Origin: Polyangiaceae bacterium
Lineage (GTDB): Bacteria > Myxococcota_A > Polyangia > Polyangiales > Polyangiaceae
Length of the DNA stretch: 64,000 nt
NCBI GenBank assembly: GCA_033763455.1
Contig: JANRKO010000047.1
Span: forward strand, 169,529 to 233,528
Reading direction: 5' to 3'
Positions 49,501-51,483 of this stretch are shown here, in pieces. Made by a program: the position numbers and the translations under genes. Within the stretch, counting starts at the first letter, position 1. Every line of letters starts with the position of its first letter. Under the pieces are notes generated by a model, which was given only the letters and a program-made list of their open reading frames with translations, was not told the DNA's origin and made no database searches.

Positions 49501-51483
49501 GTTCAGCTTGAACTTGTCCGCCAATGGAACGCCGTCCAGAGCCTAAAGCGGTCGGTTCAGGCACTTAAAGATACGGTTCCTGGGCGGGCTACGAAAGTTG
49601 CAATGGCCTACAAAGACGTGGATCTGGCCAAGAAAGTTCGAGACGACACCCAGCAGGAACTCCAGCAACTGATCGACACCCGCAGTATGGCTGGCTATGT
49701 GCCTCCTCAGCTCCTTGAACTTCGGCTCCAACGCCTCGGGGAACTGCAACCGCTGCTCGACGCTCAGGCCCAGTTGGCTACTCTATGCGCGACAGGGGGC
49801 CCGCCGGTGGACTTTTTGGGAGGGGACCTAAAGGGGTGCGAGCCGGGCAAAGTCGCTGGCTGTGTAACGCAAAAACTCCATGCCAACCTCAAGAACCAGC
49901 GGGTTCAAGACGCGCTCACTGAGTGCGGGTCAGTGGACTGCACGGCTGCCCAAGATGCGCAGAGAGCTTGCGACAATGCGATCCATGCAGCATGGGGATT
50001 AACCGGAAGCGACTTCCCAGGGTTGCAAGAGCTGAGCTTAAGCGATGGCGACGGCGGGTTAGCTGCCGAAATCCAGAAAAGACGGGATGAAATCACGACC
50101 CAGGAGAAGACAATCCTGCTGCAGGAGGGGAACACCGGCACCAAGCTTGTTACGGACAAAGCCAATGCAGAAGCCTCCTACGATGCTCTCATGCTTGATC
50201 GGCTGAACAGCGATAGTGGGGCCAACGGCGAGCTTGCCGCCCACATCGGCGAAATCAACGGTTTCGTGTCCCAAATCTATTCAAGCCGCGCCCGCCTGAA
50301 AGCGCTCAAGAGTGAGGCAGATGAGGCCGAGAATCGAGCCCAGCTTGAGGCGCAGCTCAACGAAAGCCAGGTTGAGAAACGTTTCGCGGTGGCGCGAGCG
50401 TACAGCAGCTATGACATCTGGCGGGCGCGTGCCCTGCTCCAGAGCGGCCGAATCATGGGGCTCGCAGCGCGACGCGCAATCGAATCCCGCTTTGTAGTGG
50501 ACCTCTCCAACATCACTAAGGACCAACCCTTTGTGGTCGCGCCTTTCTCGTGGGCGGACGAGATCTACGCTTCAGATCTCGACGTGCCGAGCGCGGTAGG
50601 CTTAACCGCAGGGCCAGCGCAGGTGAAGGGGGCGATCTACCCGAACAAGCTTGTGGATTACGTAGGCAACCTGGAGCGATTCGTTCAAGGATACGCCATC
50701 GCCTACCCCACTGCCATTGCAAGCCCGGATGCCCAGATCATTTCACTGCCAGGCCCTGACCAACACGAGGACATCAGCATACAGACGGCCAGCGGCCTCG
50801 TGACGCGGCGAGTGCTCTCCTCCGCATCAAAAGGGTGGTCCTTCTACTGCCCGGGGCTCCGCAGCTGGGTACTACATCCTGAAGCTGGCCTCTCCCTCAA
50901 CACAGATGCGCCCCCCGGCGCGTTGCTGAGCACAGCGTGTGCAGGGAGCCCGCCCACTCGAGCTCGCTATCGATTCTCCCTCAATCCATGGGGTTTCCAC
51001 ACAAGCTTGCGGGACAGAACCTTCGCTAACCGCTACAACGTTCGCTGGCGAAGGTTCGCAGCCAACCTCGTCGGCACGGGCATCAACGATTGCACCCGCT
51101 CAGACGACGCACTCGCCTGCTATTCAAACACCTTCCTCCGCTATTCGCTGGTTCACACCGGCCCCTCCTGGATTACGGACTTTAGTGAAGAGTGGCGCGG
51201 CCTCGATCTGCCCTCGGGAGTCATCGAGGGGGCCAAAGCGCTCGTCCTCGAAAAGTGGCTAGATCCGGTCCAACACAGTTGGAACGTGGGTGCTGTCGAA
51301 AGTGTCGGTCGCACGGAGCTGCTCGGCCGCCCCACGGATGGCCAGTACGACTTTATTCTAGAGCTGCCTAAAGAGATGCGGCCGGAACAGCTAGAGCAAG
51401 TCCAACTGCTCGCAGAGTACGACTACTGGGTTGCCAATGGGCGAAACATTATTCAGGGGGCCAGCGCCCCGGTGGCGCCGTGA
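46504..51483 (+). CDS. Giant lipoprotein, paralog 3 (1659 aa), core only
   Basis: ATGA overlap; lipobox LALG-C; all shared core motifs; ends shortly after DYWV. Confidence 0.85.
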   Translation: MKYSLVYRHVVGTLIAGALVLALGCSSQQEPAAATLQSRLGQSLPKTGFVPLPLKATPVALGGDPNVASPPQTAWEGSLADLIAADALVQCTLKNNARNYIYVEFKDGPDVYIKRLITLMSRASCFTWNAEGKLDRESWSESRRNPACNLDTRTGLNAFVRDPAKRAFTTAFSDFPDNSNVVDEFAYVDLNLCLAMQLRQGLNSAEILFASEDEQAQLLGIIRERAQIAALGYAKLARILMMPQPPAYRPTKRYYFSDIQTWGADPANGDSLKYLGEDFATSVRLLINSTTEYARFLQRRAATGWSSEAGVPRAQALWGEGSARVRLMNLLYGGGDPLGPLKAAPPDPKSAPAARALGGTAKVRNAPPAFVSESFRSPQVKVLLRLAREADAVFLKPNSAVSPTGIDVEASARRLFRAVETKLMRESCVNAANRQPCTDDELKARMPDPAAYPNNFGDYALWRRYQITPQQATSLISALNQGFGELVGIKTDQAWPGNWAALYPALYEGIGHLTGKHGRLSVRVDPSDPTSPQEEWLHLDPDFSVTPFSSNELATSYTTPLLPLYLWDDNAEQVHPIDAGYFQWHGSQKPEAEEYISQLWEQQRTAGVVSVLAYAQAAILHGLSNGRAAPFFSAAKSTAGDIGAAIGQRTLTLAPNRQKKYVFWPECAPINFSDLECPRVLPGGGPSASTSRTVVEIYQPSDQPAPRVSYGPQQRLLQTVALSPETTTFYGTDRGKLTALSQAPCIPSETVEGRTRYLCTVDEPAPGGSALFLVRGEGTSASYEAIFRTGVPGSYHMASGGALGSIAEQTMALSAVDWSKPKFDAFGLPTDWLPPAEASLVGGNPGEESYAYYLRTAKDAASQATSAVQTAIDSLTEQAVQTASLTAADEKARGIADLTKKALCGESRNCEIPDGPEIVSGAGLYTPVDCTKIEVPGMLERTTYKGGAITRLTDIAGVVCVERNEAILAAIPSKWILSKPVYDAIDATSATFDEYKGSEVQLELVRQWNAVQSLKRSVQALKDTVPGRATKVAMAYKDVDLAKKVRDDTQQELQQLIDTRSMAGYVPPQLLELRLQRLGELQPLLDAQAQLATLCATGGPPVDFLGGDLKGCEPGKVAGCVTQKLHANLKNQRVQDALTECGSVDCTAAQDAQRACDNAIHAAWGLTGSDFPGLQELSLSDGDGGLAAEIQKRRDEITTQEKTILLQEGNTGTKLVTDKANAEASYDALMLDRLNSDSGANGELAAHIGEINGFVSQIYSSRARLKALKSEADEAENRAQLEAQLNESQVEKRFAVARAYSSYDIWRARALLQSGRIMGLAARRAIESRFVVDLSNITKDQPFVVAPFSWADEIYASDLDVPSAVGLTAGPAQVKGAIYPNKLVDYVGNLERFVQGYAIAYPTAIASPDAQIISLPGPDQHEDISIQTASGLVTRRVLSSASKGWSFYCPGLRSWVLHPEAGLSLNTDAPPGALLSTACAGSPPTRARYRFSLNPWGFHTSLRDRTFANRYNVRWRRFAANLVGTGINDCTRSDDALACYSNTFLRYSLVHTGPSWITDFSEEWRGLDLPSGVIEGAKALVLEKWLDPVQHSWNVGAVESVGRTELLGRPTDGQYDFILELPKEMRPEQLEQVQLLAEYDYWVANGRNIIQGASAPVAP

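Follow-up and report, generated by a model that had tools for sequence, protein, structure and literature searches.

The window analysed here is a stretch of 64,000 nucleotides from Polyangiaceae bacterium (GCA_033763455.1, JANRKO010000047.1:169,529-233,528, forward strand), and all coordinates given below are positions in this window. Its right two thirds contain four giant open reading frames (ORFs) on the + strand, followed by an ORF resembling the TcB and TcC components of the Tc toxins. The four giant proteins share a C-terminal module which is probably the docking end of a highly diverged, TcA-like A subunit, Sec-exported and mostly lipid-anchored. A preliminary description of this DNA had proposed that the module resembles the TcB-binding region of TcA. 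This resemblance is supported by the predicted fold, where the structural match is specific, and by the gene context, and it is not recovered at the level of sequences and profiles. The features that carry the analysis are the following:

23983..30084, + strand: A-like giant paralog 1 (2033 aa), module at about 28135-29400
30950..45415, + strand: A-like giant paralog 2 (4821 aa), module at about 34820-36100
46504..51483, + strand: A-like giant paralog 3 (1659 aa), the copy named in the preliminary description, with a lipobox-like N-terminus (..LVLALGC, then SS)
48952..49068, + strand: conserved block DWSKPKFDAFGLPTDWLPPAEASLVGG.. (paralog 3 residues 817-855), just N-terminal of the first long helix, with a four-way invariance of 0.36 at residues 801-850
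49048..50493, + strand: long helical hairpin with an inserted small domain (paralog 3 residues ~849-1330), as predicted in the model of residues 460-1659
50410..51432, + strand: module as first bounded (paralog 3 residues 1303-1643), comprising the end of the returning helix, a short alpha linker and the C-terminal beta sandwich
50710..51435, + strand: C-terminal beta sandwich (module residues 171-412), putative counterpart of the TcB-binding domain of TcA in the predicted structure
52417..57534, + strand: A-like giant paralog 4 (1705 aa), module at about 56260-57531, LSAC lipobox
57531..63998, + strand: TcB/TcC-like fusion gene (at least 2156 aa), with Pfam matches and a signal-peptide-like N-terminus

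The four copies of the module were confirmed, each interval falling inside one giant ORF (28348-29346 in paralog 1, 35030-36043 in paralog 2, 50410-51432 in paralog 3 and 56473-57492 in paralog 4). In paralog 3 the interval corresponds to residues 1303-1643 of the 1659-aa protein and runs from ..DIWRARALL.. to ..DYWV. Aligned over about 427 aa each, a little beyond the initial bounds, the modules are 41-55% identical to the first copy and have more than 100 invariant columns. The motifs WRA.AL, AARRAIE.RFVV.LS, YPNKL.DYV.NLERFVQGY, RYN.RW.R.A.NLVG.G, GRP..G.Y and QLL...DYWV, quoted beforehand, are invariant or nearly so. The paralogy of the module across the four giant ORFs is far beyond chance, and the four-copy profile matches exactly four places in the 6.56-Mb assembly (E 1e-212 to 1e-228). 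Over the ~1650 residues shared by the four paralogs, the module is the best conserved common segment, with an invariant-column fraction of 0.46-0.52 at residues 1301-1400; the fraction is lowest at residues 1051-1250 (0.01-0.04), in the region of the hairpin tip.

The structure of the module (residues 1233-1659 of paralog 3) was predicted with AlphaFold2 from 70 family sequences, using no templates and no TcA sequence (mean pLDDT 86.9, pTM 0.80). The model displays two long helices (6-55 and 71-98, module numbering), a short alpha linker (helix 150-168) and a beta sandwich (171-412). The first conserved motif forms the end of the long helix 71-98, while RYN..NLVG and QLL..DYWV form two long beta strands, 278-292 and 398-412, respectively; the sandwich ends with the second of these. 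The structural comparison with TcdA1 and YenA2 that had been suggested as a check gives a specific similarity. With this model as query, Foldseek retrieved 16 TcA entries among the best 30 rows from the Protein Data Bank (PDB), mixed with jelly rolls of polyomaviruses and picornaviruses (for example, YenA2 9c4k_B with E 5.5e-4, TcdA1 6rw6_A with E 8.3e-4 and XptA2 8tv0_A with a probability of 0.99). In a second structural comparison (VIA), the top 19 rows are all TcA chains and the next rows are the P domains of furin and Kex2, at 5.9. The isolated TcB-binding domain of TcdA1 (6l7i_A, residues 2327-2516) aligns 132-137 of its 179 residues to residues 173-410 of the model and, by itself, ranks above every other sandwich. 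The alignments with TcA run to the last residues of both proteins in every row. A collinear match to helix plus sandwich, up to both C-termini, is given by TcA chains only, and these are at the top of both the biased and the unbiased lists.

A longer model of paralog 3, covering residues 460-1659 (model 2, whose numbering plus 459 gives the protein numbering; pLDDT 78.4, pTM 0.76), places the module at the end of a long hairpin. Its helices run down at about 849-904 and 999-1097 and back at 1184-1287 and 1303-1330 (390-445, 540-638, 725-828 and 844-871 in model 2 numbering). With this model as the Foldseek query, TcA occupies all of the first 21 rows listed (ranks 1-22; E 8.5e-7 to 1.1e-3), and the best protein other than TcA is Rad50, with E 1.5e-2. 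The hairpin is aligned to the pore domain of TcA, and the alignment begins where the TcdA1 channel starts (residue 2008) and runs as far as residue 2516. TcdA1 residue 2008 is paired with residue 366 of the model (residue 825 of the protein), so that the conserved block at residues 817-855 falls, in the structural alignment, where the linker of TcdA1 ends and the channel starts. Two features of TcA are therefore found in the prediction, on one hand a beta sandwich that ends the protein and, on the other hand, a long alpha-helical hairpin directly before it. Taking the models together, it is very likely that the module resembles TcA in its fold. A complex prediction with four copies of the sandwich (module residues 172-412) gave a median score of 0.41 against a mark of 0.42, with controls at 0.00, and counts neither way on oligomerisation.

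The gene that follows paralog 4 argues for the same assignment. From its N-terminus, the encoded protein contains a signal-peptide-like segment, SpvB (PF03534, E 3.4e-22), an FG-GAP propeller (FG-GAP_3, PF13517, E 3.1e-18), TcdB_toxin_midN (PF12256, E 2.3e-32) and RHS/YD repeats (RHS, PF05593, E 1.1e-4). Judged by these domain matches, the ORF 57531-63998 is a fused TcB/TcC-type capsule gene. Its start overlaps the stop of paralog 4 (ATGA). The gene is incomplete and its C-terminal toxin part is cut off, because the window ends at the end of the 233,528-base contig. Another TcB-like gene is present in the same genome (G000:C38:8476-8874, minus strand, open frame of 2141 aa), with no module-bearing neighbour.

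The positions of module matches were compared with those of TcdB_toxin_midN matches in two genome samples (genomes are numbered G and contigs C). About 850 residues precede the midN domain in the capsule protein, so that the genes are adjacent when the gap amounts to 2.3-4.5 kb. A same-strand TcdB_toxin_midN match was detected within about 2.3-10 kb of the module in 20 loci, downstream in 19 of them and upstream in one. In the first sample, the capsule domain is found 2.3-10 kb downstream on the same strand in G000:C47 (the window), G003:C35, G001:C184, G023:C169, G010:C5, G016:C37, G034:C96, G036:C895, G036:C1183, G028:C232 and G028:C267. The loci of the second sample are G200:C7, G309:C1, G309:C2, G255:C5, G255:C27, G314:C57, G141:C60, G141:C64 and G275:C1, the last one having the reversed order with the capsule gene upstream. 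ORF maps drawn for eight loci confirmed the layouts: the A-like and capsule genes directly abut or overlap in G003, G023, G034 and G010, they are separated by one ORF of about 520 aa in G036 (twice) and G028, and by three genes in G016. The ~520-aa ORFs (L012:10364-11992, L015:4227-5789 and L016:9882-11438) have a lipoprotein-like N-terminus and no significant Pfam match, and the window contains no counterpart of them.

No capsule match was detected on the contigs G010:C212, G037:C12, G095:C216 and G028:C185/C284, which end about 0.1-1.7 kb downstream of the module match, nor on G001:C36, G028:C304, G106:C105/C77 and the G017 fragments. Among the loci with enough known flank, none is devoid of a capsule neighbour except the decayed fragments of G131. 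This locus (G131:C1:829913-830782), from a 1.8-Mb single-contig genome of the same family, contains module fragments broken by stop codons and no TcB-like gene, and looks decayed.

Four complete capsule proteins from relatives (2537-2778 aa) terminate in a GH-E HNH nuclease behind PT-HINT, in Hint/PT-HINT, in CdiA_C and in Tox-HNH-HHH, respectively. Such toxin types are usual in conflicts between bacteria, and the targets of the system are probably other bacteria. A hydrophobic, signal-like N-terminal segment was recognized by eye in the capsule protein of the window and in six of seven capsule ORFs of relatives. Given the fold and the adjacency, it is likely that the module docks physically to the capsule.

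The family defined by the module is large. Among 1.84 billion proteins, 959 cluster representatives (50% identity) were recovered at E<=0.001, including 454 at E<=1e-30. Most members comprise 1450-1650 aa with the module at the extreme C-terminus, and a more distant subgroup (2100-2470 aa) displays an insert of about 270 aa within the module. In all 14 frames of relatives that were examined (14/14), the module terminates the conserved core; the TcB-binding domain terminates TcA likewise. The 98 closer relatives listed are all without a functional name, and Pfam recognizes in them nothing but C-terminal add-ons (Laminin_G_3, TIG, RCC1, Kelch). Where a source is named, which is seldom, it reads Myxococcales, Polyangiaceae, Labilithrix or Deltaproteobacteria. 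A crude rule, which asks for a hydrophobic stretch and then [GAS]-C, assigns a lipobox-like N-terminus to 83 of 104 full-length-like representatives, and several of the 21 others are overlooked lipoboxes, SPI-type signals or truncated gene calls. Three of the four giant copies of the window are lipobox-like.

Concerning the distribution, the family is present in 11 of the 41 genomes around that of the window. In an even sample of 301 genomes of the phylum, it occurs in at least 10, including the genome of the window (G000), and only in the families f1 (6/23, besides G000) and f9 (3/18), both from the order of the window. These counts are lower bounds, because four candidates were scored per genome. 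Canonical TcA homologues, recognized by the Pfam profile PF18276, occur in the same phylum: they were found with E 1e-19 to 1e-110 in 14 of the same 301 genomes, from many families. The A-like family never matches PF18276.

Several observations weigh against a TcA-like nature of the giant proteins, and the first of them concern the sequences. For the four paralogs, no TcA family was found by Pfam (E<=0.1) or NCBIfam, the 4821-aa paralog being covered by both scans over its first 1817 aa and by Pfam at E<=0.001 over the remaining 3104 aa. In particular, VRP1, neuraminidase-like, TcA_RBD and PF18276 matches are absent from the four paralogs at E<=0.1, as are the Pfam TcA families from five distant relatives at E<=0.01. 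The only signals on the paralogs are sub-threshold noise (Tape_meas_lam_C in Pfam, E 0.099; TIGR04388 in NCBIfam, E 0.048), and paralog 3 has no Pfam, NCBIfam or PDB sequence match. PF18276 has no match in the whole genome at E<=10. Searches of the PDB sequences with phmmer and hmmsearch, using one protein, a 4-row module profile and a 65-row full-length profile as queries, gave no TcA and nothing below E 0.06, and a look-up of residues 40-830 in the ESM Atlas gave no usable match.

The TcA homologues of the phylum were also used for direct profile comparison. In 12 of 12 canonical Myxococcota loci (L017-L028), the TcA continues for 155-270 aa beyond the PF18276 match, as an unannotated extra C-terminal domain. 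A 20-row alignment of the family module was compared by hhalign with the C-termini of these 12 TcAs. The result was not significant with the extension included (probability 1.3%, 21 columns), nor with the TcAs cut back to the part matched by PF18276 (probability 0.3%, with 17 columns, located in the returning helix). In the former match, the final strand of the family falls on the final strand of the extension, a strand that is not its structural equivalent. For the profile comparison suggested beforehand, the outcome was consequently negative, by PF18276 as by hhalign. The TcA motifs cited for comparison (an RRI.-type strand, PFEG..W.LEL and SDV.LH.RYTA) do exist in canonical TcAs (consensus ..RRIRxVALT.., ..LPFEGxGAISxWRLELP.., ..SISDVVLHLRYTA). 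Their pairing, motif by motif, with those of the family is not demonstrable from sequence because the profile tests failed, and the equivalence is carried by the fold alignment alone. Homology, as opposed to convergence, is not established, since no sequence method detects TcA.

Other adverse points come from the models. The beta sandwich alone surpasses the furin P domains by only about 1.1-1.4 Z units. Only ~260 of ~820 residues (about a third) superpose, and residues 460-815, modelled as beta-sandwich domains and helices, are covered by no TcA row, with no alignment to the TcA shell. For these reasons the specific signal is the combination of helix, linker and terminal sandwich, a combination that is common, among the structures compared with the models, to TcA only.

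The hairpin tip (residues ~1095-1190) is variable, Cys-rich and of low confidence in the model. In 64 of the 65 family members aligned, the tip loop (median 55 aa) lies between two Cys residues. Many of these loops are rich in Gly, Ser and Ala and contain the motif ..S.SPGP..AQ...C, and a few include stretches resembling a membrane span. An 11-residue Kyte-Doolittle window reaches at least 1.5 in 16 of the 65 members and at least 2.0 in three. In the paralogs of the window the tips are enlarged, Cys-rich, non-hydrophobic and different from one another; in two copies, which are poorly predicted, the best Kyte-Doolittle windows are 0.66 and 0.94. The tip of canonical TcA is described as highly hydrophobic, with highly conserved loops (PMC6795518, in part). 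By their residue composition, the copies of the window lack such a hydrophobic tip.

Two further points concern the genes. Many TcB-like capsule genes of relatives have no module-bearing neighbour, and paralogs 1 and 2 carry add-ons behind the module. Paralog 1 ends in a concanavalin/LamG-type domain of about 225 aa (Laminin_G_3, E 2.6e-5, residues 1939-2024). In paralog 2 the stretch 36101-45415 encodes a Gly/Ser/Ala linker and then about 3100 aa of SBBP beta-propeller repeats (PF06739, E 4.1e-46). These add-ons do not contradict the plan of TcA, because the 12 canonical TcAs of the phylum also continue beyond the corresponding domain. The stretch of paralog 2 shows an apparent internal duplication, with a LamG-like segment mid-way.

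The absence of TcA sequence or profile similarity, the non-hydrophobic, Cys-rich tips and the adhesin-type add-ons (SBBP propellers, LamG, TIG, RCC1) would all suit a different explanation, in which a generic sandwich of the jelly-roll or P-domain type is carried by a coiled-coil surface adhesin. The resemblance to TcA would then be convergent, with neither docking funnel nor channel, and the giant lipoproteins would serve the TcB/TcC-like toxin as an anchor, as an adhesin joining cells, or as a factor for export or display. We consider this unlikely, since no chains other than those of TcA match the helix and the sandwich jointly up to both C-termini, the rank of the TcB-binding fragment is above that of every other sandwich, and a docking partner would be expected to show just such a strict, translationally coupled adjacency to a TcB-like gene. 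Furin/Kex2 P domains and viral jelly-roll capsid proteins, which stand below every TcA row, reproduce the sandwich only and not the series helix-linker-sandwich.

Still less probable is a conduit on the producer side, a Tc-derived secretion device rather than an injector into a target membrane, in which the lipid-anchored A-like protein assembles in the periplasm and exports the toxin or the capsule across its own outer membrane: the Sec-type signals of both partners, the lipoboxes of most A-like proteins, the release of canonical Tc toxins by cell lysis with no dedicated exporter (PMC10847048, in part) and the 'TcdB/TcaC-like export pathway' proposed from genomics for signal-peptide-bearing SpvB-propeller-RHS toxins (PMC3482391, in part) would agree with it, but variable tips and adhesin-like add-ons suit target recognition better than housekeeping export.

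The closest known systems to the A-like proteins are the TcAs, namely TcdA1 and TcdA4 of Photorhabdus, XptA1 and XptA2 of Xenorhabdus, YenA2 of Yersinia entomophaga and TcaA-TcaB of Y. pseudotuberculosis. Canonical TcAs form homopentamers, have an alpha-helical shell with a trefoil knot and a stretched linker, and lack a signal peptide. As in TcA, the last ~500-830 residues contain a junction block, a long helical hairpin, a short linker and a terminal beta sandwich in the same order; a TcB/TcC-type gene is located next door and, as in Tc loci, several A paralogs occur in one locus. The differences are numerous. The family has no detectable sequence or profile similarity to TcA and no VRP1, neuraminidase-like or RBD Pfam domains, its core comprises ~1450-1650 aa whereas the chains of the matched TcdA/XptA-type PDB entries reach ~2540 residues, and most members bear a signal of the lipoprotein or Sec type. 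An inserted domain breaks up the hairpin, the tip of which is bracketed by Cys and, in the window, non-hydrophobic. Moreover, the A-like protein is accompanied by an FGE-fold lipoprotein, and the partner capsule has a signal peptide and, in relatives, nuclease toxins.

The capsule gene fits the description of the polymorphic toxin class 'TcdB/TcaC', which combines a signal peptide, SpvB, an integrin-like propeller and RHS with C-terminal toxins of various kinds, HNH nucleases among them (Zhang et al. 2012, PMC3482391, in part). An A-like partner is not listed in the portion of that paper examined, where 'TcdA' occurs 0 times. Bacterial teneurin-like proteins are YD-shell toxins, enriched in Myxococcota, with predicted Sec/SPII lipoprotein anchoring, polymorphic toxic C-termini and no known delivery machinery (Raoelijaona et al. 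2026, PMC13018210, in part). According to the same part of that source, they are single proteins with FN-plug, NHL, YD shell and TIP domain, whereas the window encodes an SpvB/FG-GAP/TcdB-mid capsule and a separate A-like protein; a teneurin-like interpretation of the capsule gene was abandoned on the basis of this architecture. A full-text literature search found no paper describing such an A-like partner. We regard the A-like family as a previously undescribed variant of the Tc A subunit, outside the Pfam TcA families.

If the giant proteins are TcA-like A subunits, their last ~830 residues would repeat the plan of TcA, with a junction block, a helical hairpin of ~200 Å and a C-terminal sandwich that corresponds to the TcB-binding domain. 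The sandwiches of several subunits, probably arranged in a ring, would seat the beta-propeller of the downstream TcB/TcC-like capsule, and the hairpin would be the conduit through which the toxin of the capsule, a nuclease in relatives, leaves. A translocating channel formed by the hairpin is about as likely as not; the oligomeric state and pore formation are inferred. The tandem paralogs are best interpreted as alternative A subunits for different targets sharing a single capsule, each with its own small FGE-fold lipoprotein, since they keep the docking module and vary in the hairpin tip, the inserted domain and the C-terminal add-ons.

The small proteins in question are encoded by ORFs of 269-328 aa, one preceding each of the four giant ORFs, with a partial match to FGE-sulfatase (PF03781, E 1e-13 to 2e-16):

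23172..23981, + strand: FGE-sulfatase-fold small lipoprotein gene 1 (269 aa), PF03781 E 5.1e-14, lipobox-like N-terminus ..ACGK.., directly upstream of paralog 1
30093..30977, + strand: FGE-sulfatase-fold small lipoprotein gene 2 (294 aa), PF03781 E 2.3e-16
45554..46507, + strand: FGE-sulfatase-fold small lipoprotein gene 3 (317 aa), PF03781 E 1.3e-13
51431..52417, + strand: FGE-sulfatase-fold small lipoprotein gene 4 (328 aa), PF03781 E 2.3e-14

The stop of small gene 4 overlaps the start of paralog 4 (TAATG). From the alignment of the small proteins, their N-termini are also lipobox-like (..ACGK..). They match only the N-terminal half of the PF03781 profile, and the possibility that they are true formylglycine-generating enzymes was dropped on this ground. 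FGE-like genes recur upstream in G003 and in one locus of G036, and not in all relatives. In the close relative G003, one of the small genes located between A-like paralogs (L009:12072-13034, minus strand) matches the C-type lectin domain PF00059 (E 4.8e-8) and not FGE-sulfatase, which fits a lectin-like, non-enzymatic role of the small partners. The small FGE-fold lipoproteins may be accessory, lectin-like subunits.

The left part of the window (1-19000) is a cell-surface polysaccharide locus, with genes for a carbamoyltransferase, a Wzy-like ligase, an asparagine synthase, a methyltransferase, a UDP-glucose dehydrogenase, a flippase and a GDP-mannose dehydratase, and it includes a 1328-aa FG-GAP/Big_13 protein on the minus strand (7028-11014). 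Between this locus and the first FGE-like/A-like pair are three ORFs of 247-536 aa with no Pfam match (18924-19667 on the + strand, 19664-21274 and 21322-22890 on the minus strand).

Research on the Tc toxins has dealt with their toxicity to insects and to mammalian cells and with their use as programmable protein injectors. We tentatively propose, as a view that stays somewhat short of probable, that one order of Myxococcota (probably that of Polyangiaceae and Labilithrix) possesses a Sec-exported, lipid-tethered Tc-type injector with nuclease BC capsules, used by contact on bacteria (prey or non-kin) and not on insect cells. The tandem A paralogs would then be exchangeable targeting heads. 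A subset of the orphan polymorphic toxins of the 'TcdB/TcaC' class would gain the delivery partner that they were missing, and the question of how signal-peptide-bearing SpvB-propeller-RHS toxins reach their targets would receive a testable answer. With a second A-like family, about 1000 clusters in size and beyond the reach of sequence profiles, the A-BC principle would prove much older and more plastic than previously assumed. For the myxobacteria themselves, the system would be a candidate weapon in predation and kin discrimination.

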